Shown: positions 25,091 through 62,328, counted from the stretch's first letter. The stretch: DNA of 64,000 nucleotides from a bacterium (GCA_021802705.1 JAJZRL010000001.1:84379-148378), one strand, 5' to 3'. Program-made: numbers and translations. The notes: generated from the letters alone by a model not told the origin.

Positions 25091-25125
25091 ACGAGAACCC
25101 TTGGAAAGCCCGAGTCGTTCCGAAC

Positions 25126-31537: not shown

Positions 31538-31552
31538 AAAAAAACCGGGCTA

Positions 31553-45212: not shown

Positions 45213-45278
45213 CCGCTAGGCGAGCCGGATTCCATAAAGCCGCAGCAAACTTGGACTAGGTTTATCCGGTACTGGTGG

Positions 45279-45310
45279 CTTAGGGGCGAAGGGATTCGAA
45301 CCGAAAATAC
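45279..45310. repeat. degenerate tRNA 3'-end-like fragment (putative distal att-repeat remnant)
   Basis: ggcgaagggattcgaaccg matches ggcggagagattcgaactc (the T-arm and acceptor of tRNA-Ser at 62242-62265) at about 15 of 17 positions, in the same orientation. Confidence 0.4.
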
Positions 45311-45531
45311 GTTGCAAAATATAGGTTTCGGCATACTGCCGATAAAAAGTCCTAAGGGCGGTGAGGGTCGGTTGCGAACTTTACCCTTTCAAGCAGTGTA
45401 AGGCTTTTTGAGCGACTTTGGAACTAGCCAAAACTAGGGGGAACGGTCGGAGTCTGATTTTCACAAATGAGACTAATGAGACGTTTTAAGGCGTTTTCTG
45501 GTGTCTCATTCTCAAGAGTCCCCTTAGACTA

Positions 45532-46032
45532 TTACACTAAGGACTGCTTACGACTTCGTAGGTACCTGTACTCATGCCAGGTAAGCCATATCACCGCTAT
45601 GTCTAGGATGGTTATCAGTAATAGCCAAGGAGAATGCGTAAAACTGAATCGATAGAGCTGATATGCAATGAACAACCCGAAGACCACTATGGCTGTGGGA
45701 TAGTACCAGAGTTTCTTTCGAAGAAGGCCAACAATGAGGAACATTTTTATAACCCCATGACTCAACAGGAAAAGCGCAGCAAAGTGTTGCGAACTTATCG
45801 AGAAATTCTGTGCCGAGTGAAGCAAGTAATTAGCGATAAAGTCTCTGGGGTCTTGCAGGAGCTCGTGCTGGGTCAGAGCAAGTACGAGGTTTAATAGAAA
45901 TTGCTGGCTGATGAAATATATCAAGACACCGCCGATAATTTCAAACAGCGCAATAACGGCTTTGGCAATGAGACTCAGCTCAAATACCAAGTGGATGTTT
46001 TTCTCTTCAAATAGTTTCTTTAGGCCAGACAT
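45532..46032 (-). CDS. DUF2127-like polytopic membrane protein
   Basis: Four hydrophobic helices are present and the coding sequence is low in G+C. Confidence 0.5.
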   Translation of the reverse strand: MSGLKKLFEEKNIHLVFELSLIAKAVIALFEIIGGVLIYFISQQFLLNLVLALTQHELLQDPRDFIANYLLHSAQNFSISSQHFAALFLLSHGVIKMFLIVGLLRKKLWYYPTAIVVFGLFIAYQLYRFSFTHSPWLLLITILDIAVIWLTWHEYRYLRSRKQSLV

Positions 46033-46474
46033 TTTTTATTAAAAAGTAGATGACCGAAGTTGCCAGAATTGAGATAGCCATACTCCCCGCGACGTCGATG
46101 GGATGGTGGAGCCCAACGTACACCCGAGCCGCTGCGACAGTGAGTGCTAACACCCATAATACTATTCCCAACTTGCGGTTTAGATAGATTCCAATTGCTG
46201 CAACTGCTGATACAAGGAGTGCGTGGTCAGATGGAAAACCGTTATCGGGAGTATGCGGTATGAGCGGAGTAAAATTGCCGACTACAAACGGTCGCGTATC
46301 AAAATAGATATAACCACCAAGTAACGCAAGCAGGTAGATGAACGCCAGAGATGGCAGCGCAAAGACCAGTATCCTCTTTTGCACTGATCGCGGTTGGGAC
46401 AGAAAGTAGACACCCAGAACAAGGATAGGTATGACGAAAAGATATTTTGCAGAAAGGATAAAGAAAAGATCCAT
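46007..46474 (-). CDS. PAP2-family phosphatase (membrane-bound)
   Basis: The PAP2 motifs ...GFPSDHA... and ...RVYVGLHHPIDV... are embedded in TM helices. Confidence 0.8.
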   Translation of the reverse strand: MDLFFILSAKYLFVIPILVLGVYFLSQPRSVQKRILVFALPSLAFIYLLALLGGYIYFDTRPFVVGNFTPLIPHTPDNGFPSDHALLVSAVAAIGIYLNRKLGIVLWVLALTVAAARVYVGLHHPIDVAGSMAISILATSVIYFLIKNVWPKETI

Positions 46475-46922
46475 TCAGATCATTTTAGCAAAAAAGTGAC
46501 TTTATTTCAGAGAGGTTGGCCAAAGAGCAGGCCCCAAAGATTGATAAGAAATAACAAGCATTGACAAGAGGACGGACGTATTGGGTTATCCACAGCCCCT
46601 CAGACCGGGCCAGTGACAAATAATTGCGGATCCGGGATAATTACTGGCAAGTAAGCAACAGGTACCTGTCCTCCGGTTCGGAGCCGTGAGCAAGGGTGGG
46701 AAGCGCGATCGCGTTGCTGAACGCAAGAGAAAAAACAAACCAAGGTAGCCATCACACGCTCTGTGACCTACCACATTACTGGCTAATTTTCTCGTTGGCG
46801 ATCTCTACACGCTCCACCCTAGGAGCACCCTAAATTATTCGTCCTCTAATAAGGTGCGTTTAGCGTTACTTGCAGCAAGCAAGTGTGCAAAACGTACCTA
46901 CCCACAAAAGTGGTTCTTAACC

Positions 46923-48278
46923 ATGAAAAAAGAAAAAATTACAGATCTAGAAGTAGACTACGTTCCCATTACTAATCTCAAGCCCTGCGAGTACAACCCA
47001 CGCAAGTGGAGCAGTGAATCACGCAAGGGATTAACAGAAAGCATCGACGAGTTCGGCTTCGTGCAGCCGCTCGTTGTTAATGCCGCCCCAAAGCGCAAAG
47101 GCGTTGTAATTGGCGGAAACTTCAAGCTTGACATCGCCAAGAAGAAAGGCATGGCAACCGTGCCGGTCGTGTGGGTCAACATCCCCGATCTCGAGCGCGA
47201 AAAATCCTTGAATCTCAGATTAAATAAGGCGCAGGGAGAATTTGACTTCGAACTACTGGCCACCTTCGATGAGAATTTCCTCAAAGACGTAGGATTCTCT
47301 TCCGAGGAGCTCGACAATATCTTCGAGGCCGACGAGACGCCCGAGCAATTCGATCTCGTCAAAGAACTCGCCAAGCTTGATATCACCAACGTCGAGATCA
47401 AAAAGGGCGACGTGTATGAATGGCCCGACGGCTCGCGATTGGCCTGCGGCGATAGTACGGTCGCTGAAGACATGAAGTCACTCATGGGCGACGCGAAAGC
47501 AGACATGTGCTTCACGGACCCACCTTACCGACTGGATTACTTGAAAGGCAAAAAGAAAAACGGCAAACCGGTTGAGGGTTTCGGTGCCAAGCGCGACCGC
47601 AAGTACCTTGAGACCGACGTGCTACCGGAGAATTTCACTGAGCTCTGGATGGGCACTGTTGCCGCAGCCGCTAAAGATGACTTCCACATCATCGTGTACG
47701 AGAACTGGAAGAACCTTCGCGAGATTTGGGGCGAGATGGAGAAGCACTGGAAGGTCAAAAACATGCTGGTGTGGCACCTCCCGAACCGTACGCAAGGCTT
47801 TTCCGCCAAGTACAAGTTTTTCTCCAAGCATGACATCGCGATGGTAGGTTCTTCTCCTAAAGCGCGCGGTATGAATCTCAAGTCGGAAGCAGAGTTGCTC
47901 CAAAACGAATATGAAACTGCGCTGTATGCCATCCAAGGCAAACCGCACTGGGAGGGATACAAGAAGGGTCGCAAGTACCAGCCGACCGATTTCATCGAGT
48001 ATGTTGCGTCCGATGCAAAATCATCCGGGCAGGGCGTAGTGTTTGGTACTAAGCCGATCGAGATACTGATCCCGTACGTGAAAGTCCTCACCAAGCGCGG
48101 CGACCTCATCCTTGAGCCCTTCGGGGGCAGCGGCTCGAGCGGCGCTGCTGCGATCACCATGAAGCGCCGCTGCTACACCATGGAGAAGGTGCCTACGTAT
48201 GCGGAGATCATCCGTCGCCGCTGGTCGAGGTTACTGGGACAGAAGCCGAAGAAAATACATGAAAGAAAATCAGCGTAA
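46923..48278 (+). CDS. ParB-like nuclease domain fused to a DNA N6-adenine/N4-cytosine methyltransferase
   Basis: An N-terminal ParB/Srx-like domain (…PITNLKPCEYNPRKWS…FGFVQPLVVN…) is fused to a methyltransferase with a DPPY motif (CFTDPPYRLDY) and a C-terminal AdoMet motif (EPFGGSGSSGAAA). The start was moved to MKKEK at 46923. Confidence 0.8.
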   Translation: MKKEKITDLEVDYVPITNLKPCEYNPRKWSSESRKGLTESIDEFGFVQPLVVNAAPKRKGVVIGGNFKLDIAKKKGMATVPVVWVNIPDLEREKSLNLRLNKAQGEFDFELLATFDENFLKDVGFSSEELDNIFEADETPEQFDLVKELAKLDITNVEIKKGDVYEWPDGSRLACGDSTVAEDMKSLMGDAKADMCFTDPPYRLDYLKGKKKNGKPVEGFGAKRDRKYLETDVLPENFTELWMGTVAAAAKDDFHIIVYENWKNLREIWGEMEKHWKVKNMLVWHLPNRTQGFSAKYKFFSKHDIAMVGSSPKARGMNLKSEAELLQNEYETALYAIQGKPHWEGYKKGRKYQPTDFIEYVASDAKSSGQGVVFGTKPIEILIPYVKVLTKRGDLILEPFGGSGSSGAAAITMKRRCYTMEKVPTYAEIIRRRWSRLLGQKPKKIHERKSA

Positions 48279-48690
48279 AACGGTGGACGCGCGGATCGCC
48301 AAGGGCAAGCAGAAATTCTTAGAGATTCTCGAGAAAAATCCGGTGATCCATGTGGCCATCGAACGCTCCGGTATCAGCAAAGCCACCTTCTACCGCTGGC
48401 GCGATACCGATACGGAATTTGCTGAGAAAGTAGAAGCTGCCATGCGCGAGGGCAAAGGACTCGTCAGCGACATTGCCATAGCGCAGCTCGTCACCGCTAT
48501 CAAGGAGAAGAATCTCGGCGCGATTAAGTTCTGGCTCATCAATCACCACCCTGATTACGCCAACAAACTGCACGTCACGGCGGAAGTAGAAGAAAAGTTC
48601 GTATGGACGCCAGAGGACGAGGAGCGTGTGCGTAAATCGCTGGAGACCGTCGCATTAAAAGCTAAGCAAAAATTCTTCCATGGAATCTAA
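48259..48690 (+). CDS. phage terminase small subunit-like HTH protein
   Basis: An HTH segment (…GISKATFYRWRDTD…) sits immediately upstream of and overlapping the terminase large subunit. The start is taken at the internal Met, which overlaps the upstream gene by ~20 nt. Confidence 0.55.
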   Translation: MKENQRKTVDARIAKGKQKFLEILEKNPVIHVAIERSGISKATFYRWRDTDTEFAEKVEAAMREGKGLVSDIAIAQLVTAIKEKNLGAIKFWLINHHPDYANKLHVTAEVEEKFVWTPEDEERVRKSLETVALKAKQKFFHGI

Positions 48691-50206
48691 CCCTGAAATA
48701 CAAGCGATCATCGACATGATGATCAAAGATCAACCGTTCCGCAGAGCGATGGTGACGAGAGAGCCACGTCTCTTCTTCGGCACCTACCTCAGCCACTACA
48801 TCACCTGCCCCCTCGCATACTTCCACTTCGAGATGTTTGAACTGCAAAAAGACTCGCGCAACAAGACTATCGTCATCATGGGGGCGCGCAACAGCGCCAA
48901 GTCGACCATCATGAATACGAATCTTGCACTGTGGTCAATCCTCGGGGAGCCCCAAAAGAAAATGGTCGTGATACTTGGCTCCACCCAGATCAACGCAAAG
49001 AAACACTACCTGGACTTGCGTTCCGAGCTCGAACAGAACGAGCTACTGCGCTCCGACCTCGGACCTTTCAAAGAAAAGGATTCTGCCTGGGGGCCGACCC
49101 TACACTTGCCGAAGTACGGCGCTGACATCACCTTTGCATCGACCGAACAGAGCATACGCGGTTTCAAAGTGGGACCTCACCGCCCTGACCTCTTCATTGC
49201 CGACGACCTCGAAGACGATGAGTCGGTAAAGACGCTGGAAGGACGCAACAAGCTCTACGACTGGTTGACGAGGGTGGTGTTGCCCGCTGGAGACGAAAAA
49301 ACAACGCGCCTCATCGTGCTCGGGACTCTGCTACACGAAGACTCGCTCATGATGCGGTTGAAAAAAGATATTCTGAGTGGTGACAGAGAGGGTTCGTACC
49401 GCGAGTACCCGCTTCTCGACGAGTTCGGTGGCGCGATGTGGAAAGGAAAATATCCTGACGCCGCGGCTATAGAGGCACTGCGTAAGTACGTCGGCAACGA
49501 AAAAGCATTCACCCAAGAGTACCTCTTGAAGGCCGTCTCAAATAACGAGCGCGTCATCTATCCGGAATGGATTCACCGCTATACGACCTTGCCGCCGATG
49601 AATACTGACAACCGCTATCGCGGCGCGTTCATTGGGATGGATTTAGCGATAGCGCAGAACCAGCAGGCCGACAATACTGCCATGGTGGTAGGTAGAGTGT
49701 ATGGCTGGGGTGACAACATGCGCATATATATCCTACCCAATCCCGTCAACGAGCAGATGGACTTTCCGACAGCTCGCGAACGAGCGAAAGCGCTGTCTTC
49801 ATCTCTTGATGTAGGGAGGAAAGCAATGATGTTCATCGAAGGCAACGGATATCAACGTGCACTCGCTCAAGACCTTCCCGGTTATCCGGCAACTGCAATC
49901 ATCGTCCACGGTGACAAACGCGCGCGCTTAGCGCTTGAAAGCCACCGAGTGAAAGATGGCATCGTGCTGTTTCCCGACAAGGGCTGTGAGACATTGATCG
50001 CGCAACTTACCGGCTTCGGCAGCGAGCGCCATGACGATTTGGCGGACGCGTTCGGGCTCCTGGTATCAGAGGTCGCAAAGTCGAACAGTGGATACCATCC
50101 GTTTTCACCATCGCTCAACAGGCTTCCAAGACCAGAAAAGGGAGAGGACGATCCGTTTGAGAACTTAAGACCTTTCACCAGAGGATTCTTAAAAATGAAA
50201 TTCTAA
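48680..50206 (+). CDS. phage terminase large subunit
   Basis: Walker A (IMGARNSAKST) and Walker B (DLFIADDLED) are followed by an RNaseH-like nuclease domain with conserved acidic residues (…FIGMDLAIAQ…, …RHDDLADAFG…). Confidence 0.8.
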   Translation: MESNPEIQAIIDMMIKDQPFRRAMVTREPRLFFGTYLSHYITCPLAYFHFEMFELQKDSRNKTIVIMGARNSAKSTIMNTNLALWSILGEPQKKMVVILGSTQINAKKHYLDLRSELEQNELLRSDLGPFKEKDSAWGPTLHLPKYGADITFASTEQSIRGFKVGPHRPDLFIADDLEDDESVKTLEGRNKLYDWLTRVVLPAGDEKTTRLIVLGTLLHEDSLMMRLKKDILSGDREGSYREYPLLDEFGGAMWKGKYPDAAAIEALRKYVGNEKAFTQEYLLKAVSNNERVIYPEWIHRYTTLPPMNTDNRYRGAFIGMDLAIAQNQQADNTAMVVGRVYGWGDNMRIYILPNPVNEQMDFPTARERAKALSSSLDVGRKAMMFIEGNGYQRALAQDLPGYPATAIIVHGDKRARLALESHRVKDGIVLFPDKGCETLIAQLTGFGSERHDDLADAFGLLVSEVAKSNSGYHPFSPSLNRLPRPEKGEDDPFENLRPFTRGFLKMKF

Positions 50207-50415
50207 CGACGCTTCTTGCGAGGTTTGGCGAATAGACTAAGTTGATCGGGAACGAGAGGCGGCTTCTGCCGCCTCTCGACGTTCCATAGTAGCTGCAAGA
50301 GCTTTATGAGGTAGTGCCAAATCGCGTAGGCCTCTCCGAGAGAAATATTACGGCCGGTCGATTCCTTAATGATTCGCCGAAGCTCGATAGCACTCTGTTT
50401 GGAGAGAATGGCCAT
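50203..50415 (-). CDS. hypothetical small protein
   Basis: A 70-aa ORF with a basic C-terminus. No family was recognised. Confidence 0.35.
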   Translation of the reverse strand: MAILSKQSAIELRRIIKESTGRNISLGEAYAIWHYLIKLLQLLWNVERRQKPPLVPDQLSLFAKPRKKRR

Positions 50416-50466
50416 GAGGCCATTCCAGCTTAGATCTGGAGGTTTGCGAAGCGAGTTGTCTACTGG

Positions 50467-51060
50467 CTATTTGGCGAGTGCTTGAATATCAGCACGAGCC
50501 TTTGCAAAGTCGTCGGATACCTTCTGTTCGTCAGCACGTAGCTTGGTAGTGGAGATTTCTTTTATCTGCCAACTAACTGCATCGCCAGCCCAGAGGCAGA
50601 TATCACTTGCTGCATCATTAATGTCCGCATTCCAGTTGCCGAGGGCATCGGGCGAGGTGTCAGGGTATAAACTATCAGCTTGTTGGTAAGCGCTGATTGC
50701 GTTAGCTCCCGGATCATTCTTGAGGCACGTATTTGTGCGAAACGAACCAAACTGGCTTGCAGCTGAATTTGGATCGTTGAACGCCTTGAGGCCTGCGTTT
50801 GCATCTGCATACTGCATTGTGCCAAGAGCAGTCTTCCCGGCACCTAATAGCGATACGTAGTGATCAATACTTGCTGAAAGAATCGCGACAATCTTTTGCG
50901 TATCTGGAGCAGATGATGTTGCCACTGCTACAGGATTTTGTGTTGGTGCACTTTCCTGTGCCTGCTTAGTAGGCTGTGGCGTGTTGAGACCAATGATAAG
51001 CAGTAAAACAAAACCGAGAACAACTACCCCGATAATGGAGTAGAGAACTTTTTTGAACAT
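50467..51060 (-). CDS. hypothetical secreted or anchored protein
   Basis: A signal-anchor (MFKKVLYSIIGVVVLGFVLLLIIGL) is followed by a low-complexity linker. No family was recognised. Confidence 0.5.
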   Translation of the reverse strand: MFKKVLYSIIGVVVLGFVLLLIIGLNTPQPTKQAQESAPTQNPVAVATSSAPDTQKIVAILSASIDHYVSLLGAGKTALGTMQYADANAGLKAFNDPNSAASQFGSFRTNTCLKNDPGANAISAYQQADSLYPDTSPDALGNWNADINDAASDICLWAGDAVSWQIKEISTTKLRADEQKVSDDFAKARADIQALAK

Positions 51061-51379
51061 AAAATCTACTAGGATTTATGTGGCAGAACCTCCTGAGAAA
51101 ATCAAAAGGCTCCCAGCCATCGCGATAGCGCCTTTCGGCAACTACCCATACCCGTTTCCAGATATGACCTAGTAGAGTGACTCTGACTGGGAGTCCTTTG
51201 ATCTCTACTAGGTTTTGCGGCCATACCTTAGGAATTTGACTTCCTAAGGGTTAGGTCGGCTTATATTAGGTTGTGCAAGTACATGATAGCAGAAAACGCT
51301 ATCATCTGACCACCTTAGCTTAGCTTTGGGGGCTTGCGAAGCGGTTACCAACAGGTTGGGCAAATACAATTACTATCAT

Positions 51380-52783
51380 TTATACACAGCAGCTGAGCTT
51401 AGAAATATCTTTAGTAAACGAAAGTGCGGCGATCTTAATAGCTTCCGACAGCGACGGGAATATAGGGAGCGAGCTGGTGACATCGTCAATTGTATTTTTA
51501 TTTCGTATCAATATCGCGGCCTGAGCGATCAGTTCGACAGCATTCGGCGCGAGAATGTGCACGCCCATGATCTGTTTGGTTTTCGGATGAATGGCCATTT
51601 TGATGAGTCCGTCAGTCTGGCGCAGGATGATTGCTTTTGGCACATCAGCTAATGAGACGGTGCGACACGCGCAGACGCCCATCGCTTTCATCTGCCCCTC
51701 TTCGGTATAGCCAACGCTTGCGAGCTGTGGATCAGTGAAGATCGCGTACGGCACAGTGTTGTAATCGATAGAAAGCTGCGTGCCTTTGAGAGCATTTTCC
51801 GCTGCGAGCGTGCCTTCGTGTCCGGCAGTCGGCTCTAACCGCAGTGGTGCGCTCGTGATATCTCCCACCGCAAAGATATGGGACTGCGATGTGGCAAAAA
51901 ATTGATCAACAACGATTGCTTTCTTGCCATCTATCTCCACCCCCACTTTCTCAAGCCCTAATCCTTGTGTGTTTGGCGTTTTGCCAGTCGCCAGCAGTAT
52001 TTCATCGCCTGAGACTTCTTCCTGTTTGCCGCCTGAAGTGTACGTGACGTATTTCTTGTCTGCGTCTTTTCGAGCAGCGAGAACATCTACATCGGTCTTA
52101 ATGATAATTCCTTGCTTCTCGAGAATCTGGCGCAGGCGGTCGGTCAGTTCTTTCTCCGCAGGTGGAAAGATAGACGAGCCGCGCTGGAGTATTGTCACCT
52201 TCGTGCCAAATCGGGAAAATAGCTGCGCGAATTCAAGACCAAGAGGTCCTGCGCCCACAACAATCAACTCTTTCGGTTGGCGTTCCAACTTCAGCGCCTC
52301 TATGTGGGTGATAAACCCGACTTCGCGGATATTTTCAATGGGAGGGACAGTCGTGGTTGAACCTGCCGCGATAATAAATTTCTTCGCGGTGAGTCGCTTT
52401 CCGTTAACCTCTACCTCATTGGAGGATACAAACGCCGCCTTGCCGTCGATGAGAGACACATGCTCAAGACCTGTGAGAACCTTCTCGTACTTCTCATTGC
52501 GGAGCCTCTCAACGAGAGCGAGCTCGTCTTGCACGACTTTCGTAAAATTGAAGTTTTTTACTTCCAACTCAATACCGGGGATGCCGTGATGCTTTGAATA
52601 ATGCAAGATTTCACCCGCATGGATGAGCGTCTTTGAAGGAACACACCCGACGTTTACGCAGGTACCACCAAGAGGAAGTCCGCTATTTATCATCGCAGTC
52701 TTCGCACCTAGCTCGTCGGCACGAATCGCCGCCGCAAACGCTCCTGCACCACCACCAATAACAATTAGATCGTATGTTTCCAT
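51380..52783 (-). CDS. merA: mercuric reductase (no N-terminal HMA domain)
   Basis: FAD-binding GGGAGAFA, the redox-active disulfide GGTCVNVGCVPSK, a dimerisation domain and the MerA-diagnostic C-terminal vicinal Cys pair (…KLSCCV) are present. Confidence 0.8.
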   Translation of the reverse strand: METYDLIVIGGGAGAFAAAIRADELGAKTAMINSGLPLGGTCVNVGCVPSKTLIHAGEILHYSKHHGIPGIELEVKNFNFTKVVQDELALVERLRNEKYEKVLTGLEHVSLIDGKAAFVSSNEVEVNGKRLTAKKFIIAAGSTTTVPPIENIREVGFITHIEALKLERQPKELIVVGAGPLGLEFAQLFSRFGTKVTILQRGSSIFPPAEKELTDRLRQILEKQGIIIKTDVDVLAARKDADKKYVTYTSGGKQEEVSGDEILLATGKTPNTQGLGLEKVGVEIDGKKAIVVDQFFATSQSHIFAVGDITSAPLRLEPTAGHEGTLAAENALKGTQLSIDYNTVPYAIFTDPQLASVGYTEEGQMKAMGVCACRTVSLADVPKAIILRQTDGLIKMAIHPKTKQIMGVHILAPNAVELIAQAAILIRNKNTIDDVTSSLPIFPSLSEAIKIAALSFTKDISKLSCCV

Positions 52784-52788
52784 GTAGG

Positions 52789-53193
52789 TTATTTTATATC
52801 TTCAGACTTCACTGCACAGTCTTCGCAGTATTTTTGATAGCGCCGTCTAATCAGGTAGTCGGCTCCGACTGCAATTATCAGCAGTGCTGCGCCTGCATAG
52901 CCGATATTCTGGCTATGTGCTACGTAGCTGCCGTAGTAGAGAACGATCCCCGCGAGCACGGCAAGCACAAGTGCAACGGGGTTCTTATGCGCTCTGAATG
53001 AGAGAACAAATCCAATGAGGCTAATGACAACGAGCACGAGTAAGAAAGGGGTGAGCCATGTGCCCAAGAACACCAAGATGGAGCTCAAGCCGACCGTGAT
53101 GAGTAGTGGTGCGAGGATGCACGGCAGACAGACTAGCGCGAGAAATCCCGCTAAGAGACCAGTGGATTGTAATTTATTTGCATGCTTGTTCAT
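52789..53193 (-). CDS. putative mercuric/heavy-metal ion transporter (MerT/MerF-like, 3 TM)
   Basis: The first TM helix carries a Cys pair (LALVCLPCILAPL). The C-terminal cytoplasmic tail carries CEDC. The gene is adjacent to merA. Confidence 0.45.
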   Translation of the reverse strand: MNKHANKLQSTGLLAGFLALVCLPCILAPLLITVGLSSILVFLGTWLTPFLLVLVVISLIGFVLSFRAHKNPVALVLAVLAGIVLYYGSYVAHSQNIGYAGAALLIIAVGADYLIRRRYQKYCEDCAVKSEDIK

Positions 53194-53726
53194 ATGATTT
53201 CATCCAGTTCGTCCTTGTATTGCTGGTAATTGAGTGCTCCTTGATTGATGTCCGCGATGTTTCCGTTTTTATCTATGATATACGTGATTTCCGGAGCTGT
53301 GAGATTGTATGCTTGCACCACCGATTGATCGTAGCTCACGAGCGGAAAATCGGCTTTGATATAGTCGCGATACTGCTGCAACGTGCTTACCGGCTCGCCG
53401 TTGAGTATGTCAATCGCCACGACGCTAACACCTTTTGCCGCATAGTCCTTTTGGATCTGATTGAGCGCCTGACCGACTGGTATGCACTCGCCACATCCAC
53501 CGAACATTGCGAACAAAATGATAGGTTTGCCTTTATGATTGGCGAGGGAGAATTGTTTACCGTCTATGGTTTGGACACTAAAATCCGGTGCTTGTTCACC
53601 AACGGCGAGAAAAGTTGTTGAGGCGGAACCACCAGCCGAAGTCTTCGGTGTTTGCGAGATTACATAGATCCCAAATGCGATAACGACAGCGGCTCCTATG
53701 ATGATGTATGGTGTCGATGCTTTCAT
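53190..53726 (-). CDS. TlpA/redoxin-family thiol:disulfide oxidoreductase (membrane-anchored)
   Basis: A signal-anchor is followed by a thioredoxin fold with a CxxC motif (FGGCGECIPV). Confidence 0.65.
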   Translation of the reverse strand: MKASTPYIIIGAAVVIAFGIYVISQTPKTSAGGSASTTFLAVGEQAPDFSVQTIDGKQFSLANHKGKPIILFAMFGGCGECIPVGQALNQIQKDYAAKGVSVVAIDILNGEPVSTLQQYRDYIKADFPLVSYDQSVVQAYNLTAPEITYIIDKNGNIADINQGALNYQQYKDELDEII

Positions 53727-54040
53727 AACGCGAATAGTCCTCCCAACTCTTTACTGAACCCCTTTTTATTAAGTGAGTAGAAAACAGTTTGTGCTTCCTT
53801 TCTCGTTTTGACCAAATTAACTGCGCGGAGCTTGCTGAGACTGTGGGACACGTTTGATATCGTTGTTCCCACCAACTCGGCAATATCGGACACGCTTAAC
53901 TCCGAATGGTGGCGGAGAAGATAGCAGATCTTGAGCTTCGTGATATCGCCCATAACGCCGCACTGTCGAGCACATAGTTCAATGGCCTCATTGTCCCGCA
54001 GCTCCTTCTTTATTTGTTGCTTACTTGAACGCATATTCAA
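53723..54040 (-). CDS. ArsR/SmtB-family metalloregulatory transcription factor
   Basis: A wHTH domain (…LKICYLLRHHSELSVSDIAELVGTTISNVSHSLSKLRAVNLV…) is present. The gene is placed between the cop and mer genes. Confidence 0.75.
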   Translation of the reverse strand: MNMRSSKQQIKKELRDNEAIELCARQCGVMGDITKLKICYLLRHHSELSVSDIAELVGTTISNVSHSLSKLRAVNLVKTRKEAQTVFYSLNKKGFSKELGGLFAL

Positions 54041-54128
54041 ATATTACTCTTGGTGAGTGGTTATTGCAAATGAAATTATCAACACCAAGAGGTTGGGATA
54101 AGTGCCAAGGGATCTCGACGAATGACCC

Positions 54129-56351
54129 TTACCTTCTCTTCAAGAGTAAAGAGTTAGTGACCACGGAAATTGAACTAGTCGCCATCGCAACCGACGCGAA
54201 GATCGGATTTAACAGAATATGGAAGAATGGATACAAAGCGCCCATCGCAACAGGAATTAGGATGATGTTATAACCGAATGCCCAGACTAGGTTCATTTTG
54301 ATCGTGCGCATTGTTTTCTTGGAAAGTGCGATAGCTGTGGCAACGGATTTCAAGTCCTTATTTATAAGCGTGATGTCAGCTGCCTCGATAGCTACGTCGG
54401 TACCGGTTCCCATGGCAATGCCGACGTCTGAAGCGGCGAGTGCGGGCGCGTCGTTGATACCATCACCGACCATCGCAACTTTTTTACCTTCCGCCTGAAT
54501 TTTACGCACCTCTGCTTCCTTTTGATCTGGTAAGACTTCAGCAAACACGCGGCTGATGCCTAACTGCTTGGCAATGGCATTTGCAGTTCGTTCGTTGTCT
54601 CCAGTGATCATAGCCACTTCGATACCGAGCTTTTGTAGTTCGGCAAGGCCTGCTTTCGCACTTTCTTTGATGGTATCTGCAACGGCGATAAGTCCGATGA
54701 GTTGTTTTGAAGTGCCGAGCATCATCACCGTCTTGCCCTCGCTTTCCATTGTTGCAATCTGATTCCCGACTGCCTTAATGTCTACACCTTCACGATCCAT
54801 CAGACGTCTGTTACCAAAGATTATTTTCTGCCCGTCGACAACACCCTCGACACCATGCCCAACTATAGCTTGAAACTTCTCAATCCTTGATAGGCTGAGA
54901 TTCTTTACTTCAGAAGCCTTCACGATTGCTTCGGCGAGTGAATGTTCTGAGCCCTTTTCTATCGAGGCCGCGATTTTGAGTACCTCATCCTTTGAGTAAC
55001 TGCCGAAAGGAATAATGTCTGTGACCTCGGGTTTTCCATTCGTGAGCGTGCCTGTCTTATCAAAGATAATCGTGTTGATTTTGTGTGCTGTTTCCAAACT
55101 TTCTGCGTCCTTGATAAGTATGCCGTGCTCCGCTCCTTTCCCTGTGCCAACCATTATTGCGGTCGGTGTCGCAAGTCCCATTGCGCAGGGGCACGCAATT
55201 ATGAGAACGGCGACGGTATTCAAGAGTGCAAACGTGAGTACCGGAGTTGGGCCGAAAACATACCAAACAACGAACGTGCCTACGGCAAGCATTATCACTA
55301 TCGGTACAAAATATGACGACACTAAGTCTGCTAATCGTTGTATCGGTGCTTTGCTGCCTTGCGCCTCCTGCACGAGCTTGATGATTTGTGCGAGCATTGT
55401 TTCTTGTCCTACCTTTGTCGCCTTGAAAGTAAACGAACCGGTTTTGTTCATCGTCGCGCCAACAACGGTATCTCCCTTTGTTTTATCGGCAGGGATGCTT
55501 TCGCCAGTAACCATTGATTCGTCAATTGAAGATTCACCTTCGACAATAACTCCGTCTACTGGAATTTTCTCACCTGGTCGTACTCTGATGACGTCGCCTA
55601 TCACGACCTCGCTGATTGATATATCTGTCTCTTTGCCGCCGCGAATGACGCATGCGGTTTTCGCTTGCATCCCGATGAGTTTCTTAATAGCTTCCGATGT
55701 ACCCGCCTTTGCTCTCGCCTCAAAATAACGACCTAAAAGAATGAGACCAATGATGATCGCTGATGTATCGAAGTATGGCATCGGACTGATGCCGATACTC
55801 GCTACCAATTGTGGAAACAAGGTCACGAATGTCGAATATCCGTATGCAACTGACGTACCCAAGGCAACAAGCGTGTCCATATTTGCAGTGCGGTGCCGAA
55901 GTGCAGAAATAGCCGCGCGGTAAAATCCATATCCTGCCCAGAACTGTACCGGAGTCGCGAGCAACAACTGCAACCAGAAATTTTGCAAGCTCGTTGGAGC
56001 CGTTTGCATGAGCACCGGAAAACTGCCCCATAGAATCAGGCCACCCAAAACAAGACTGAGAATGACTTTAATTTTTAAGTCTTTAAGTTCCTTTTGTTTT
56101 TCAGCTTGCTCGTCTGCTTCATGTATCATTTCGTCACTGATCGAGGCTTCGTAACCGACATTAGAAACTGCCGATGAGAGGTGCTGATGGGTGACTTTCT
56201 GAGGGTCGTAAGTAACGGTAGCTTTTTCAGTAGCCAGGTTTACGGTAGCTTGTGCAACTCCATCAACTTTTTTAAGCGACCGCTCCAAAATTGTCACACA
56301 TGAGGCGCAGTGCATTCCCTTGATTGAGAAACTCTTTTTGATTTGCGGCAT
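54129..56351 (-). CDS. copA: copper-translocating P1B-type ATPase
   Basis: N-terminal HMA (GMHCASCV), a TM CPC motif ([13 protein letters not shown]), DKTGTLT, the HP motif and GDGINDAP are all present. Confidence 0.9.
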
Positions 56352-56378
56352 AATTTTTTCTTAAAATTATCTATTTGC

Positions 56379-58274
56379 CTAATATTTTCTTGCAACCCGC
56401 AAACCATTCCCGACCGCGATAAGCTCCGCGACTTCGTGAACGGTCACCGCTATGGCAACTGTCAGGAAGCCGATGAGTGCAGAGGGAATAAGGACGGCGA
56501 GGAGGAGTATTGAAAACACAATGTTCTGCAAGCTGATCCCACGAGCTTTTTTCCCCAATCCAATTGCATACGGAATCTTCGTAAGGTCGTCGGCCATAAG
56601 CGCGACATCGGCCGCTTCGATGGCCGCATCGGTGCCAGCTGTGCCCATAACCATGCCGACGGAACTTTCCGCCAGAGCTGGAGCGTCGTTAATTCCGTCG
56701 CCGACCATTGCCACCACTCCGTATTCTTTTTTAAGTTCTTTTATTGCCGCTACTTTTTCGTCTGGTTTGAGATCAGCCTTGATTTGATCAATGCCGAGTT
56801 CTTTTGCGATAGCTTGGGCAGTGACCAAGTTGTCCCCAGTTAACATAACAACGATCATGCCCATGTGTCGGAGCTGGGTGATTACCTGCTTGGCGACAGG
56901 TCTAATTTCATCTCGGACAGCAATCATTCCAAACAATGCTTTATCCGACCCGACGAGCATAATGGTCTTTCCTTCTTTTCTAAGCTTTTCCATCTTAGAG
57001 TCGAAAGGGGTTACATCAAGCTTTGAAAATAAATCTTTTTTGCCCACATAAATTGTCTGGCCATCTATGACTGCTTTTGTACCGAAGCCGGACATCGCTA
57101 TGAAGTCAGAAGACGGCAAATTTTCTATAGCAAGCGATTCCGCATATCTCACGATAGCTTGGGCGAGCGGATGGCCATTAAACTTCTCCACGCTATAGGC
57201 CAATGTGAGGACATTTTTCTCGTCGCTGTTGATGGGAATAATGTCGGTGACTATCGGCTCTCCGCGAGTCAGCGTCCCAGTTTTATCAAACGCAACAGCT
57301 CTGATTTTCCCCAAGTTCTCCAAATAGACACCGCCTTTGATGAGCACGCCTTCGCGTCCGGCTCGGCCGATTCCGGCGGCCACGGCTACCGGCGTAGACA
57401 TGACCAGCGCACACGGAGCGGCGGCGACCAAGAGGACAACTGCACGAACGCCCCACGCTGAAAGTGAAGGATCTATCAGAGAAAACAGTGCAAGACCTAT
57501 TGCGCTAAAGAGTACAACCGGCGAGTAGTATTTACCGAACTTTTCAATAAACTGCTGGGCTTTGCCTTTCTTTTCCTGCGCCTCCTCGACCAAATGCACG
57601 ATTTTGGAGAGCGTATTGTTCTCAAAGGTTGCCGTAACTTGAATCTCCAGCGCGCCTTCTTGATTGATGGTGGCGGCGAACACATGCATCCCTTGGCCTT
57701 TTTCCACAGGGATTGATTCGCCGGTGACCGGGGCTTCGTTCAGACTAGACTTGCCTTTGATGATTGTGCCATCGGTTGCGATGGATTCACCAGGGCGCAC
57801 CAAAAATATATCGCCGACTTTCAGTTCGCTAGCAGGAATCATTGTCTGTTTTCCATCTCGCATAATTCTGGCTTCCTTTGGTGCGAGATCGAGGAGTTTG
57901 CGGATCGAGGCTCGCGCTCGTGCATAGGCGTATTCCTCTAGTCCTTCGGCAACGCCATAGATAAATACCAAAAAGGCTGCCTCGTCCCACATGCCGAGGA
58001 TTATGGAGCCAATAGTCGCTCCGAGCATCAGAAGCTCTATGCCGATCTCTTTGCATTCGACCAGCTCCTCAATGCCTTCACGCGTCCAGTGGTAGCCTCC
58101 GATGACAATCGCAAAAATATAAATACCGATTTCAAATCCGGAAGGGATAATGCCGAGGTGTCTCAAACCAAATGCCAACAAGGTTAGGCCCCCAGCGATG
58201 AGAGCGTTTCGCATCGGCGGATGCGCGTAGAGCTTGCCATCAAATCCATCATGATCTTTTTCTTTGTGTGCCAT
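56379..58274 (-). CDS. heavy-metal P1B-type ATPase lacking an N-terminal metal-binding domain (APC motif; Zn/Cd/Co-type?)
   Basis: [17 protein letters not shown] and a TM motif AAAPCALVMSTP (APC in place of CPC/SPC) are present. There is no HMA domain. The start is taken at MAHKEK; the ORF track extends two codons upstream to a TTG. Confidence 0.8.
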   Translation of the reverse strand: MAHKEKDHDGFDGKLYAHPPMRNALIAGGLTLLAFGLRHLGIIPSGFEIGIYIFAIVIGGYHWTREGIEELVECKEIGIELLMLGATIGSIILGMWDEAAFLVFIYGVAEGLEEYAYARARASIRKLLDLAPKEARIMRDGKQTMIPASELKVGDIFLVRPGESIATDGTIIKGKSSLNEAPVTGESIPVEKGQGMHVFAATINQEGALEIQVTATFENNTLSKIVHLVEEAQEKKGKAQQFIEKFGKYYSPVVLFSAIGLALFSLIDPSLSAWGVRAVVLLVAAAPCALVMSTPVAVAAGIGRAGREGVLIKGGVYLENLGKIRAVAFDKTGTLTRGEPIVTDIIPINSDEKNVLTLAYSVEKFNGHPLAQAIVRYAESLAIENLPSSDFIAMSGFGTKAVIDGQTIYVGKKDLFSKLDVTPFDSKMEKLRKEGKTIMLVGSDKALFGMIAVRDEIRPVAKQVITQLRHMGMIVVMLTGDNLVTAQAIAKELGIDQIKADLKPDEKVAAIKELKKEYGVVAMVGDGINDAPALAESSVGMVMGTAGTDAAIEAADVALMADDLTKIPYAIGLGKKARGISLQNIVFSILLLAVLIPSALIGFLTVAIAVTVHEVAELIAVGNGLRVARKY

Positions 58275-58278
58275 AGGA

Positions 58279-58641
58279 TTATTTAACAATGATTTTGCCG
58301 TGATACATGTTCATGCCGCAGGAATAGGTAAATTCGCCGGTTTGTTGAGGTGTCAATTCTACGGTTACTTTTTGATTAAGCGGCAGATATTTGCGTATTT
58401 TGAAATCTCCTAGCACTACTTCTTCAAGGCAGCTCGTTGGGTCTTTACGGATAAAATTTACCTTTGTTGTCTTTTCTTTGGGAATCGAGATAGTTTCGGG
58501 TGAGTAACCGCCCTCTACAATGATGTCTACAGATGAATCAGAAACAGCAACTTCTTTTTCGCGTTTGCCCAAGAAAAACCAATAGGTAAAGGCAATTCCT
58601 GCAAGGCCGACTATAGTGACGATGATTTTATCTGGTGTCAT
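58279..58641 (-). CDS. cupredoxin-like copper-binding protein (membrane-anchored)
   Basis: An N-terminal TM helix is followed by a beta-sandwich domain ending ...TYSCGMNMYHGKIIVK (type-1 Cu-like C..H..M ligands). Confidence 0.6.
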   Translation of the reverse strand: MTPDKIIVTIVGLAGIAFTYWFFLGKREKEVAVSDSSVDIIVEGGYSPETISIPKEKTTKVNFIRKDPTSCLEEVVLGDFKIRKYLPLNQKVTVELTPQQTGEFTYSCGMNMYHGKIIVK

Positions 58642-58649
58642 ATTTCTAT

Positions 58650-58988
58650 TTAGCGTAACGCGTGTTCTGTGATTTCAAGATTACAGCTATGATGCTGTTT
58701 GCACCACACCTCGCATTTCTCTGCCCACTCTTTCTCCGCGTACCTGAAGCCACATTCAGGACAAACATGGGCTCCTGATTCTTCTTTCTCGATCTTGTAG
58801 TCTCCAAGATTCTCGATTTCTTTTTTCAGAGTCTCAAGGTCAAGAGCTTCGTTATGCTCTATTTCTGTTTTTCCGGTCGTAAAATCTACAGTGCAACTCA
58901 AGACCTCCTTGTGATCTTTACAGACATCTTCAATGAGCATCTTGCATGCGTTGCAATGAGTGCCTTTGATGGTGAGATTGGTTTTCAT
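58650..58988 (-). CDS. HMA-like metal-binding domain fused to a C-terminal Cys/His zinc-ribbon-like cluster
   Basis: GTHCNACKMLIE is an HMA variant with THCxxC. It is followed by …CPECGF…CEVWCKQHHSCN…. Confidence 0.55.
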   Translation of the reverse strand: MKTNLTIKGTHCNACKMLIEDVCKDHKEVLSCTVDFTTGKTEIEHNEALDLETLKKEIENLGDYKIEKEESGAHVCPECGFRYAEKEWAEKCEVWCKQHHSCNLEITEHALR

Positions 58989-59209
58989 GTATTTTTTGTA
59001 TCGTCTTTCTTTGTCGTTTCTTCTTTTTTATGACCTCGATTCATCATCGCCATCATGAGCACCATTGAGAGCGGACAGATGAACGCGACGAGCAACCCCG
59101 AATACTTGAGCATCTGTGGTGCAAAGAAGTAGAACAGAATGATCACAGCAAGTACGCCAATAATAACCTTCGGATTCAAGCAACACTTGATCATTTCCCA
59201 GATGCTCAT
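58985..59209 (-). CDS. hypothetical small membrane protein with N-terminal CC pair
   Basis: A 74-aa protein (MSIWEMIKCCLNP…) with two TM helices and a basic tail. Confidence 0.35.
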   Translation of the reverse strand: MSIWEMIKCCLNPKVIIGVLAVIILFYFFAPQMLKYSGLLVAFICPLSMVLMMAMMNRGHKKEETTKKDDTKNT

Positions 59210-59213
59210 ATGT

Positions 59214-60953
59214 TTATGAATCTATGACGTTAAAGCTGGTTTGTAATGCGCCCATGGGACAGACCACCCGCACGATGCCAGTGTGAGTCGGTGTAAATTT
59301 AAGGACGTTTTTCCCGCCAACCGCAAGAAGCTGTGATACTCCGTAGTCGGGAATTGTCATCACTCCCATACAGCCACCCACGTTGACCTTGTCGTCAACA
59401 GTAAGTTCAACCGGGACGTTATTTTTTACCGTAATCATCTGCGGATAAAATCCACGCTCTCGCGAGACCTCCATCGAGACTTGCTGTGCTTGTACGCATG
59501 TTGCTTTCGTAGGATCACACACTGACGAGTCTGTAGATGCCTGCGCGTCGGCCGAGACAACTGTACCGCTCGTATTCGGTATGACCGTAAACGACGCACC
59601 GCGCGTCATCATACCCATAGGACAGTTGAAAGGAATTGTTCCAGTTTCTGTCGGTGTGAACGTAACGGTGGTAATGCCCTGCGAAGAGAAGGATTTTGTG
59701 ATGCCAAGTGTCGGCATCACGAGTACCTGTCCGCAGCCTGCAGCTTGGCCTCCGTCGATTCTCCACTCAACCGGAATACCGGCTTGCACGGTAAAGTGCG
59801 AAGGACTGTAACTGTAGCCACTCACTTTCATCTCGACGATCTGTTTTCCATCTTCGATCGGTGCTGTCGCGGCTTGCGCGACGACTCCGCCGCTGGACGG
59901 AAAAGAGAGATTCACTCCCGTCAGCGTCAAAGCGTTGCCGATGTTCCAGAAGCCAAGCAGTACCACGAGGACGGCAGAGAATCGCAAGAAATGCTTTTGA
60001 AATGCACCTTTGGCAAAGCTCGACAAAGCGCTAAGAGAAAGCAGCATCGGCAAAGTACCGAGCGAGAATGCAAGCATAGTGAGCGCTCCTCCGGTGAAGT
60101 TGCCGAGGGTGAGTACGTAGAGTTGCAGCGCCAAGGTAAAGCCGCACGGCAGGAAGAAAGTAAGCGCACCTAAGACGAATGCGCCGCCTTTGGTATCTTT
60201 CCCGCTCAAGTCATGGATTTTGTGTGCGATGAACTTCGGCATACTTGGTTGAAGCCGTCGCATCCATGGGAATAGATTCAAGAGCTGAAACCCAAGAATA
60301 ATCATCACGAGACTTGCAATGATTGAGAGGAATCCTGTGCCTCGTGCCGAGAGGCTAATTACAGAGCCAAGCGCACCGATAAGACCTCCAAAGAACGTGT
60401 AGGAGACAATACGACCGGCGTTGAAGTAGAGTGTTGGTTTGAATTTTTGGTAGCCCGTGAGGTTTGGATATAGCTCGTTGTATTTTGCAGCTGCTGCTAG
60501 CAAGAGTCCTCCCGCCACCGCAAGACAGCTTGATGTACCGGCCACAAGCCCGATCAAGAAGATAAAGCCGTAGCTCATGTTGTTTGTAATACCGAGGCCT
60601 TCAGGGATGATGTGGAATTGTTTGAGAATCAGATACGCAGCGAGAATAAACAAGAACACTGCTCCAATCTCAGCGTAGTCGCGAGCGGTGTTCTTGTGTT
60701 TGGTGGCTTCGGGCGAAGTGTGGCGATCTTCCCACTTGGAAACAGAGTAGCCGTCTTCTTTGATTGCACTTTCAAATGCATGAAGCGGAACATGCTCCCG
60801 CGAGAAGACTTCAGCCTTGCCACTAACAAAGCTGACATTTACCTTTTCGACGCCGGGAAGCTTTTTGAATTTACGTTCAACTAGGACTTCACAACTTGCA
60901 CAGTGAGTGCCGTGAATCTTAAGTTTTGTTTTTTGTAATTGAGACATAAGCAT
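59214..60953 (-). CDS. HMA domain + DsbD_2-like (CcdA-type) transmembrane domain + two C-terminal cupredoxin-like repeats
   Basis: An N-terminal HGTHCASCEVLVE HMA domain is followed by a 6-TM core with SSC and FLPCG motifs. The C-terminal 200 aa contain duplicated …GCGQVLVMP…FNCPMGMM… and …GGCMGVMTIP…VVCPMGAL… motifs. Confidence 0.6.
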   Translation of the reverse strand: MLMSQLQKTKLKIHGTHCASCEVLVERKFKKLPGVEKVNVSFVSGKAEVFSREHVPLHAFESAIKEDGYSVSKWEDRHTSPEATKHKNTARDYAEIGAVFLFILAAYLILKQFHIIPEGLGITNNMSYGFIFLIGLVAGTSSCLAVAGGLLLAAAAKYNELYPNLTGYQKFKPTLYFNAGRIVSYTFFGGLIGALGSVISLSARGTGFLSIIASLVMIILGFQLLNLFPWMRRLQPSMPKFIAHKIHDLSGKDTKGGAFVLGALTFFLPCGFTLALQLYVLTLGNFTGGALTMLAFSLGTLPMLLSLSALSSFAKGAFQKHFLRFSAVLVVLLGFWNIGNALTLTGVNLSFPSSGGVVAQAATAPIEDGKQIVEMKVSGYSYSPSHFTVQAGIPVEWRIDGGQAAGCGQVLVMPTLGITKSFSSQGITTVTFTPTETGTIPFNCPMGMMTRGASFTVIPNTSGTVVSADAQASTDSSVCDPTKATCVQAQQVSMEVSRERGFYPQMITVKNNVPVELTVDDKVNVGGCMGVMTIPDYGVSQLLAVGGKNVLKFTPTHTGIVRVVCPMGALQTSFNVIDS

Positions 60954-60958
60954 TTTAA

Positions 60959-61576
60959 TTATTCACCTGCTGGAAATGCGTAGGACGCAGGAATAGCCTG
61001 CGGAGCTTCCGCGCCCGTACCATAGACGATTACTATTTCTTGATGTGCTTGCAGTTGCAACTCTCGCGGATCGCCTTGATAAAGCGTACCATTCGAGTAC
61101 ACCTTGAGCGTTTTATCTCCCGATGCGACATAGGCACCGATTGTGTCCTTCGTGAATTTCACTCCCCAGATGTCGAAGAATTGTCCGAGCGTGAATGTTT
61201 GTATTTTCGGCGACTCGACATGAATGACGCCAGTACCGTCATGCACATGGATGTCGGAAATGAATCCCGCAACCTGATTGATACCGATATTTGCAGGCAC
61301 TGGTGTCGGCTTGCCGTCAATGACGATGTCGAGATGTTGATGGATGTGTAGCGCCGTTCCTTCCGAAGAGAGCGCAGGAAGTCCTATTGCTTTTAGACGC
61401 GCAGGAAGATTTGGAATCTCGGCTCCCCACGGGGCATTAGTTGTTTGAATGCCTGGAAGCTCTCCTGATTCTGCAACAGGTGCCGGACTTTTACTTGGGA
61501 ATATATGGCTCCAAGAAAATAGGACGCCGAGCACGACTACAAATCCAACTATGCACAGTATTGTTTTTGTCTTCAT
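60959..61576 (-). CDS. hypothetical secreted protein
   Basis: A signal-anchor (MKTKTILCIVGFVVVLGVLF) is followed by a His-rich segment (LHIHQHLD…ISDIHVHDGTGVIHVE), which may bind metal. Confidence 0.5.
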   Translation of the reverse strand: MKTKTILCIVGFVVVLGVLFSWSHIFPSKSPAPVAESGELPGIQTTNAPWGAEIPNLPARLKAIGLPALSSEGTALHIHQHLDIVIDGKPTPVPANIGINQVAGFISDIHVHDGTGVIHVESPKIQTFTLGQFFDIWGVKFTKDTIGAYVASGDKTLKVYSNGTLYQGDPRELQLQAHQEIVIVYGTGAEAPQAIPASYAFPAGE

Positions 61577-61580
61577 AGTT

Positions 61581-62240: not shown

Positions 62241-62241
62241 G

Positions 62242-62328
62242 CGGAGGCGGAGAGATTCGAACTCTCGAGACCCTTTCGAGCCTGCCGCCTTTCCAAGGCG
62301 GTGCACTAGACCGCTATGCGACGCCTCC
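62242..62328 (-). tRNA. tRNA-Ser (anticodon GGA), long variable arm
   Basis: The reverse complement GGAGGCGTCGCATAGCGGTCTAGTGCACCGCCTTGGAAAGGCGGCAGGCTCGAAAGGGTCTCGAGAGTTCGAATCTCTCCGCCTCCG has acceptor GGAGGCG/CGCCTCC, anticodon stem CCGCC/GGCGG with loop TTGGAAA, and a 5-bp variable-arm stem. Confidence 0.85.

Follow-up and report, generated by a model that had tools for sequence, protein, structure and literature searches.

A capsid-less terminase and methyltransferase module at the heart of a widespread family of integrative mobile elements in candidate phyla radiation bacteria

What is a phage DNA-packaging module doing in a bacterial chromosome when no portal, capsid or tail gene stands beside it? 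The question is raised by a 64,000-nucleotide stretch of a bacterial contig (GCA_021802705.1, JAJZRL010000001.1:84379-148378; hereafter the window, with positions counted from its first letter), in which three overlapping plus-strand genes at 46923-50206 encode a fusion of a ParB N-terminal domain with a DNA methyltransferase (ParB-MTase), a small terminase (TerS) and a large terminase (TerL). The original prediction, made from the sequence alone, took this trio for an orphan packaging module in a genome resembling those of the candidate phyla radiation (CPR, or Patescibacteria), and likened it to the hijacking modules of phage-inducible chromosomal islands (PICIs) and other satellites, with a degraded prophage as the alternative. 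CPR bacteria account for much of bacterial diversity; their genomes are tiny, most of them have not been cultured, and their phages are little known. Here we show that a widespread family of integrative mobile elements in CPR bacteria is built around this trio, describe the variant in the window and the island that holds it, and weigh how such elements might spread. We found no description of these elements in the full-text literature, the coverage of which omits most subscription-journal papers, and the family is apparently undescribed.

The family emerged when GTDB species, each represented by one genome, were searched by pattern scan, which returned 536 loci with a TerL relative; the best 80 were inspected, using hidden Markov models (HMMs) built from clustered neighbour genes and applied to flanks of +/-10 kb. 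TerS and TerL were present in all 80 genome loci and collinear in every one, the methyltransferase was found in 78/80, a large serine recombinase (Resolvase, Recombinase and Zn_ribbon_recom domains) in 64/80, and a LexA/S24 repressor in 28/80, with XRE regulators in other relatives. Portal, major capsid protein and protease genes were found in 0/80 within these flanks, by the same HMMs that are positive in the phage-type loci described below. Of the 80 record titles, at least 49 refer to CPR lineages, among them Saccharibacteria, Paceibacterota, Woesebacteria, Doudnabacteria, Berkelbacteria, Peregrinibacteria, Dojkabacteria, Moranbacteria, Kuenenbacteria, and Andersenbacteria, and eight say only "bacterium"; the contigs are up to 1.29 Mb long, and one complete genome is included. 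A recombinase-bearing relative, L027, lies in the complete genome CP175956. The TerS family comprises 707 representatives at 50% identity (E<=1e-10), and two copies of the element occur in several metagenome-assembled genomes (MAGs) or contigs.

These loci share their gene order as well as their genes. Typically, a LexA/S24 or XRE repressor is followed by a small variable gene, ParB-MTase, TerS, TerL, cargo, and the serine recombinase, and many elements have a second, shorter methyltransferase between ParB-MTase and TerS. Counting genome loci and IMG/VR loci with enough flank, the recombinase is found in 53 of 62 element-type loci and lies 3' of TerL on the same strand in 51 of these 53. The cargo slot, between TerL and the recombinase or just past the latter, is filled variably, with restriction-modification-like pairs, a reverse transcriptase, DUF4352 and OB-fold membrane proteins, or P-type ATPases. 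For one subfamily that sits in differing surroundings, the stretch of nucleotide homology has its limits at the 3' ends of the LexA and recombinase genes, a unit of ~6 kb, or of ~14 kb where cargo lies inside. Compact relatives consist of 6 genes, which leaves no room for a primase or replicase. Separately, some IMG/VR loci (L086-L089, L093, and L127) carry two full-length TerL genes in tandem.

The three core genes are sound in the window itself, where they overlap by 20 nt and 11 nt and where independent calls on the identical public contig give the same gene starts. The first matches Pfam ParB_N (PF02195, 1e-9) and N6_N4_Mtase (PF01555, 3e-17) as well as phrog_498 (4.6e-69), and carries both DPPY (motif IV) and the S-adenosylmethionine motif FGGSGS, which are conserved in the family. 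The second sits directly 5' of terL and matches six PHROG small-terminase families (best 7.5e-9); it has no significant match in the PDB by sequence, and its AlphaFold model, built on an alignment of 30 relatives, is all-helical (pLDDT 89), with many proteins annotated as small terminase among its structural matches in BFVD (probability 1.0) and, as its top PDB matches, Sf6 gp1 and the phBC6A51-type 2ao9, both weak (E 0.3, probability 0.9). The third belongs to the phrog_38 large-terminase family (5.4e-62), matches NCBIfam terminase domains weakly, and has a family profile that reaches the ATPase domains of PDB terminases (T7 gp19; 4bij, 8dgc) at ~3e-6, which is likewise weak by sequence. Its Walker A (G-ARNS-AKST) and Walker B (DLFIADDLED) motifs are intact, with K74, S75, D175, and D176 invariant among 22 relatives, and the same relatives all keep D321 (GMDLA), D412 (GDKRARL), and D453/D456 (HDDLADAF), so that the C-terminus reads as an RNase H-like nuclease with conserved acidic residues. 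TerL contains no frameshifts, and the overlapping start and stop codons of the trio are preserved. Pfam, PHROG, motifs, and AlphaFold hence confirm the co-directional fusion, TerS and TerL that the original prediction had named, including its remark that TerL is free of inactivating frameshifts.

All three genes are, moreover, under strong purifying selection, since dN/dS against the closest relative, locus L003, is 0.059 for ParB-MTase, 0.057 for TerS, and 0.085 for TerL, at dS of 0.66-0.91. Separately, a patch of ~90 bp within terL (+1280..+1400 nt; window ~49960-50080) keeps 78-89% nucleotide identity in many loci, between elements whose TerLs otherwise share only ~45-50% amino-acid identity. 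Either a cis-acting site or no more than the coding sequence for the invariant HDDLADAF motif could account for it.

With HMMs for portal, major capsid protein, and protease built from the nearest true phages, we scanned all frames of the 64-kb window and found none of the three in any frame, nor any tail gene, which bears out the earlier observation that structural genes are missing near the trio. The island that holds the trio is flanked by host genes on both sides, hence there is no contiguous prophage; all of its open reading frames are accounted for, and no structural remnants are present. PADLOC has no model that matches TerS or TerL and gave only generic methyltransferase matches, and no integrase was found among the annotated island genes with Pfam and NCBIfam.

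Where, then, does such a module come from? The nearest cultured phages, Mu-like and assorted siphophages, reach a TerL identity of only 22-27%, and none exceeds ~27% over most of the protein. IMG/VR yielded 197 contigs with relatives. Those with TerL identity >=40% show the portal-less layout with recombinase, except the portal-linked L122/L123 (42%). Those at 30-42% identity (L122-L162; up to 50% to other elements) are co-directional phage arrays, in which TerL is followed by a portal(+Mu F) gene (phrog_2662, 1e-119), a protease, and an HK97-type major head protein (phrog_10, 6e-90). The portal, major capsid, and protease HMMs are positive in 31 phage-type IMG/VR loci, with portal and major head protein verified against PHROG. 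Element-type and phage-type loci have different TerS families, and their TerLs form separate lineages, the 29 portal-linked sequences standing apart from the 121 element-type ones in a midpoint-rooted neighbour-joining tree of 150 TerLs. In the phages L136 and L156, ParB-MTase lies directly before TerS and is followed by TerL and portal; the element core therefore looks like a retained phage left arm, and the arrangement of ParB-MTase beside terminase is indeed a phage configuration, as the original prediction stated. The head-module phages (L122-L162) thus have a homologous TerL, a homologous ParB-MTase, and the same left-side gene order as the elements, but they continue into portal, protease, major capsid protein, and a long co-directional array on contigs of ~37-58 kb, whereas the elements stop after TerL and turn to cargo and a serine recombinase. 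Judged by these homologies, the elements look like descendants of a phage left arm from which everything from the portal onward was lost.

Two observations on the deposited records belong here. The portal of L122/L123 (P0391), from the nearest true phage, was submitted as part of a MAG under the name "Candidatus Hodarchaeales archaeon", probably through a binning artefact. Further, dozens of IMG/VR "viral" contigs (L083-L121 and others) are chromosomal CPR fragments or capsid-less elements, presumably called viral owing to their terminase genes.

The family is also marked by a structured RNA. In the window, a LOOT RNA lies 64 nt upstream of the gene for a 197-aa membrane-anchored protein that has no Pfam, PHROG, or PADLOC family, and LOOT occurs in 4/8 close relatives (70-94 bits), one of which (L006) likewise has a homologue of the 197-aa protein directly 3' of the RNA. 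A covariance model made from five LOOT copies and searched across all loci found 38 copies, all in element-type loci; the ~30 phage-type loci and the 5 control loci had none. Most of these copies (27/38) lie 0.1-2.5 kb past the TerL stop (binomial P ~8e-18), and in recombinase-bearing loci 24/31 flank the recombinase gene at a distance of 20-161 nt, either divergently upstream or directly downstream of it. LOOT is usually found 50-94 nt 5' of a same-strand variable gene, often one with an N-terminal hydrophobic helix. LOOT RNA is a recurrent component of the terminase elements, and in the window the recombinase expected beside it is absent. To our knowledge, LOOT has been seen in environmental sequences only and we know of no function for it; it is not discussed in the main text of its source paper. 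As a separate observation, the 197-aa gene and the LOOT RNA of the window lie between two 27-nt direct repeats, as if these were cassette borders.

How does the window copy compare with its closest relatives? These are L003 (TerL 92% identical) and L163 (80%). Nucleotide homology with L003 covers 46975-50463 and breaks at both ends, and the shared block comprises ParB-MTase, TerS, TerL, and a convergent gene for a 70-aa protein, which has homologues at the same position in L003, L004, L007, and L163. Other elements have an XRE-family gene in this place, to which the small gene proved unrelated. Both L003 and L163 have two extra plus-strand genes 5' of ParB-MTase (~280 aa and ~125 aa) that are missing from the window; the ~125-aa gene, as a side observation, encodes a second TerS-like protein (Table 1). 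The subclade formed by L003, L004, L084, and L163 generally has no nearby recombinase and keeps the core, and Pfam scans of the neighbours of the recombinase-less L004 and L084 revealed no other integrases. The window copy is thus a recombinase-less variant with a four-gene core, set in a metal-resistance island at a tRNA-Ser gene.

That setting is not peculiar to the window. L003 has MerA, MerC, a redoxin, and ArsR on the opposite side of the trio, and L004 has a P-type ATPase and DUF2127 upstream of it, the latter directly 5'; the link to metal resistance therefore recurs in this subclade. Across the family, P-type ATPases lie <=10 kb from TerL in 10 loci, so that the combination of terminase and metal resistance, which the original prediction took for undescribed, is not unique to the window.

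The island stands out by its composition (Table 1), with a GC content of 0.46-0.53 against 0.57-0.58 across 1-45212 and beyond 62241; within it, GC is 0.46 at the left edge, 0.53 in the trio, and 0.48 in the cargo. On the far side of the tRNA gene, HtpX shares 81-87% identity with proteins of Paceibacterota, Kaiserbacteria, and Minisyncoccota, and the host is therefore a CPR bacterium (Paceibacteria-like), in agreement with the CPR-like genome of the original prediction. A block of LemA, GGDEF, HtpX, and tRNA-Ser(GGA) is conserved in the Paceibacteria relatives L164-L167, where a NERD protein, methyltransferases and an ATPase, or DUF192 and ribonucleotide reductase lie beyond the tRNA. Because these accessory genes vary, the 3' side of tRNA-Ser is a variable integration hotspot. 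The far side of HtpX/tRNA-Ser is not syntenic in these relatives, so that they offer no clean empty site from which to set exact boundaries of the island. No direct repeat of the tRNA-Ser 3' end, of the kind expected for an attachment (att) site, was found at the left boundary. Like known tRNA-linked resistance islands, the window island is a low-GC block at a tRNA 3' end whose site content varies among relatives, and its cargo is a mer, cop, and cad-type set; unlike them, it has neither a tyrosine integrase nor a direct repeat of the tRNA end.

Two short sequences mark the left edge. A 63-bp non-coding motif is 82% identical to L003 2228-2290, where it lies just 5' of the first plus-strand gene of that element, and it may be an operator or an element end. 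Separately, a tRNA T-loop-like sequence, GGGATTCGAACC, lies at ~45271-45300, exactly at the left GC boundary; as a tRNA or att site (near 45,290) it is unsupported by ARAGORN and Rfam (E<=1), and it could be no more than a badly degraded att remnant. As ordinary housekeeping features, the host part carries an RNase P RNA and six further tRNA genes (Table 1).

Table 1. Positions of the core genes, island features, and host RNA genes in the window, and of selected features in related loci (locus numbering of each record)
Feature	Position	Strand	Basis or remark
ParB_N + N6/N4 DNA methyltransferase fusion	46923-48278	+	451 aa; first gene of conserved core
Small terminase TerS, element-specific type	48259-48690	+	143 aa; PHROG TerS families
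Large terminase TerL	48680-50206	+	508 aa; phrog_38; ATPase and nuclease motifs intact
70-aa basic protein	50203-50415	-	Convergent with TerL; 4-nt overlap of TerL stop
Low-GC island, 3' side of tRNA-Ser(GGA)	45213-62240		17 kb; composition
63-bp non-coding motif, island left edge	45458-45520		TGAGAC twice as direct repeat, plus inverted GTCTCA
DUF2127 membrane protein	45532-46032	-	Pfam, 1.2e-31
PAP2 phosphatase-family membrane protein	46007-46474	-	Pfam, 5.8e-16
27-nt direct repeat, copy 1	50427-50453		Repeat family D9; 85% identity
197-aa protein, N-terminal membrane anchor	50467-51060	-	Hydrophobic helix, residues 4-23
LOOT RNA	51124-51257	-	Rfam RF03000; 77.2 bits vs gathering 46.4
27-nt direct repeat, copy 2	51317-51343		Partner of 50427-50453
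Mercury(II) reductase MerA, core enzyme without N-terminal heavy-metal-associated (HMA) domain	51380-52783	-	TIGR02053, 1.1e-157; 526 bits vs cut-off 454
MerC-like membrane protein	52789-53193	-	Pfam MerC, 4.9e-7
ResA/AhpC-like thiol-disulfide oxidoreductase	53190-53726	-	Profile matches
ArsR/SmtB metalloregulator	53723-54040	-	NF033788, 1.3e-19
Copper-type P1B ATPase, N-terminal HMA	54129-56351	-	TIGR01511, TIGR01525
Cd/Zn-type heavy-metal P1B ATPase	56379-58289	-	TIGR01512, TIGR01525
HMA + DsbD-like transmembrane + cupredoxin protein	59214-60953	-	Pfam
DsbA/thioredoxin-like lipoprotein	61581-62240	-	Pfam Thioredoxin_4; NCBIfam NF041057
tRNA-Ser(GGA), island right boundary, 3' end toward island	62241-62328	-	ARAGORN, Rfam
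RNase P class A RNA (host)	31542-31885	+	112 bits
Six further host tRNA genes	12253-12471, 14825-14898, 23127-25199		
LOOT RNA copies in relatives	L004 13068-13184; L005 11925-12052; L006 12348-12477; L084 5517-5639		Rfam
Second TerS-like gene (~125 aa) in relatives	L003 3233-3607; L163 2331-2708	+	Pfam HTH_Tnp_1_2, 1.7e-5

How would an element with a packaging motor and no shell spread? The explanation that we favour, with moderate confidence, is that these elements move in the manner of satellites, by hijacking the capsids of helper phages. The serine recombinase would integrate and excise the element, and the LexA-type repressor would silence it until a DNA-damage or phage signal. Upon helper infection, the element's TerS would recognise a pac-type site on element DNA and its TerL would dock on the portal of the helper procapsid and package the element together with adjacent cargo; capsids would be diverted from the phage and the cargo would spread. 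The methyltransferase may mark the DNA so that restriction is survived in the next host. For the window copy, packaging could start in place and, as in lateral transduction, take the metal-resistance genes that lie downstream into capsids. Helper dependence, packaging, induction, and the role of the methyltransferase are what we infer here. The absence of any linked portal or capsid gene in this family, and the frequent presence of two copies in one genome, also fit the satellite idea.

Described satellites provide the frame for this comparison. The core of PICIs is defined by a primase-replicase and capsid-remodelling genes and no TerL, and that of capsid-forming PICIs (cfPICIs) by TerL, capsid, protease, portal, and head-tail adaptor and connector genes, with 9-11 components (PMC10085698); by these published core definitions the elements are neither PICIs nor cfPICIs. 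As in PICIs (e.g., the SaPIs), we see small integrative islands with an integrase, a repressor, a terS that would redirect packaging, accessory defence or resistance cargo by the core, and no structural or lysis genes (PMC10085698). Unlike PICIs, the elements have a full TerL, a large serine recombinase, and a CPR host; their regulator is LexA/S24 or XRE, not AlpA, MerR, or Stl; and they have neither a primase-replicase nor a capsid-remodelling gene, while the window copy is also without integrase and regulator. With cfPICIs they have in common their own TerS and TerL of phage origin, in lineages separate from phage terminases, but the capsid, protease, portal, adaptor, and connector genes of cfPICIs are absent from the elements. 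The comparison with lateral transduction by Staphylococcus prophages is conceptual: there too an integrated terS/terL has cargo immediately downstream in the packaging direction, but the prophage supplies its own capsids and the elements have no capsid genes. Hence, of the hijacking that the original prediction proposed on the model of PICIs and satellites, the part that concerns the family fits better than the degraded-prophage alternative, with hundreds of CPR genomes, selection, and integrase and repressor linkage, whereas the window copy fails the PICI and cfPICI definitions because it has no integrase, regulator, or replication gene.

Several results weigh against the satellite reading or its generality, and we set them out together. 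Regarding the hosts, 23/80 record titles bear non-CPR names as deposited, 21 of them in one TPA submission series (binchicken / SRP_co isolates). Regarding the elements, their ends are homology breakpoints only and variable cargo also lies past the recombinase in some loci, so that true boundaries and att sites are unproven; the search for circular or excised forms, terminal repeats, and pac sites gave none, and the contigs of the 160 loci have no terminal overlaps. No helper phage was found either, the portal homologues of the nearest phages lying on 37-58 kb contigs of which none is attributed to CPR. Regarding the window copy, no replication gene was recognised, there being no primase or replicase among the window island genes (PICIs and cfPICIs have one), and the ParB/Srx motif (47170-47190), canonically GG-H-x-R, reads IGGNFKL in the window and in L003 against a family consensus of IGGHFRL. 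The two substitutions, His to Asn and Arg to Lys, are conservative, and purifying selection acts on the gene. Most directly, the window copy has no recombinase, no repressor (LexA or XRE), and no att repeat in 64 kb, which makes its own mobility doubtful; it is probably unable to excise by itself.

This last point gives the strongest of the rival explanations its footing, namely that the window copy is an immobilised remnant, a decayed element or prophage carried as a passenger in a metal-resistance island and without a packaging role. Besides the missing recombinase, repressor, and att repeat, the two upstream genes of L003 and L163 are missing, homology breaks at the start of ParB-MTase, and the LOOT RNA stands without the recombinase that it leads one to expect. 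Decay, however, is difficult to reconcile with dN/dS of 0.06-0.09 against L003 in all three genes at dS of ~0.7-0.9, with intact catalytic motifs in TerL, and with start and stop codons that still overlap. Nor is the lack of a recombinase peculiar to this copy, as the subclade L003, L004, L084, and L163 keeps its core without one, as do 9/62 flank-sufficient loci, and random decay would not keep one gene set in hundreds of genomes. We therefore consider a mere remnant unlikely.

Purifying selection on copies that have no large serine recombinase would also be expected if the trio served the host, by sabotaging phages through concatemer cutting, mis-packaging, or competition for procapsids, as an abortive or population-level defence housed in defence islands, with transfer secondary or absent. 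The trio does keep company with defence-type cargo (restriction-modification-like pairs, UG/Abi-like reverse transcriptase, and methyltransferases), and known satellites do hinder the packaging of their helpers (PMC10085698; 2025 preprint). On the other side, PADLOC gave no model match for TerS or TerL, and integrase linkage in 85% of loci together with two copies per genome fits a selfish mobile element better. We regard interference as the primary role as rather improbable, and note that interference and satellite transfer are compatible with each other.

The trio might instead belong to a dispersed system resembling gene transfer agents (GTAs), in which other parts of the genome would encode capsid, portal, and tail, and host or island DNA would be packaged into self-made particles. 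Dispersed GTA loci are known in other bacteria, the window is 64 kb of a 286-kb contig, and the cargo lies directly 3' of terS/terL, which is the usual packaging direction. Yet no portal, major capsid protein, or protease lies within +/-10 kb of the 80 genome loci or in the window, and in CPR genomes, which are small, a trio that is patchy, multi-copy, and variable in context is unlike a fixed host system, and we think this reading very improbable. Finally, a one-off degraded prophage, of which the trio would be the chance survivors, is effectively refuted and keeps hardly any credence, for although the three genes are phage-homologous and ParB-MTase by terminase is a genuine phage arrangement (L136, L156), the same gene set with nothing else phage-derived recurs across the 80 inspected loci, the element TerLs form a clade apart from portal-linked TerLs, selection on the trio is strongly purifying, and host genes lie on both sides of the island, so that this alternative of the original prediction fails.

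Returning to the satellite reading, we propose tentatively that in these elements CPR/Patescibacteria may have their first known phage satellites, or transducing elements akin to satellites, and that they may follow a strategy unlike that of the four described satellite families: TerS, TerL, and a protective methyltransferase, without capsid, replication, or remodelling genes, combined with a serine recombinase, a LexA-type switch, and LOOT as a dedicated non-coding part at the junction of recombinase and cargo, and perhaps acting as a major vehicle for defence and metal resistance in a phylum whose routes of horizontal transfer are poorly understood. Satellites of CPR viruses were described as unknown in a 2025 preprint. 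If confirmed, the elements would give a concrete route for the horizontal transfer of defence and metal-resistance genes in CPR bacteria, and a new minimal design of capsid piracy, in which the motor is the element's own and the shell is stolen. They would also provide a first genomic context for the orphan LOOT RNA and, in their compact large serine recombinases with natural cargo slots, tools of possible interest for genome engineers. For virus catalogues, the family presumably explains how a terminase match alone put many chromosomal CPR fragments into IMG/VR as viral.

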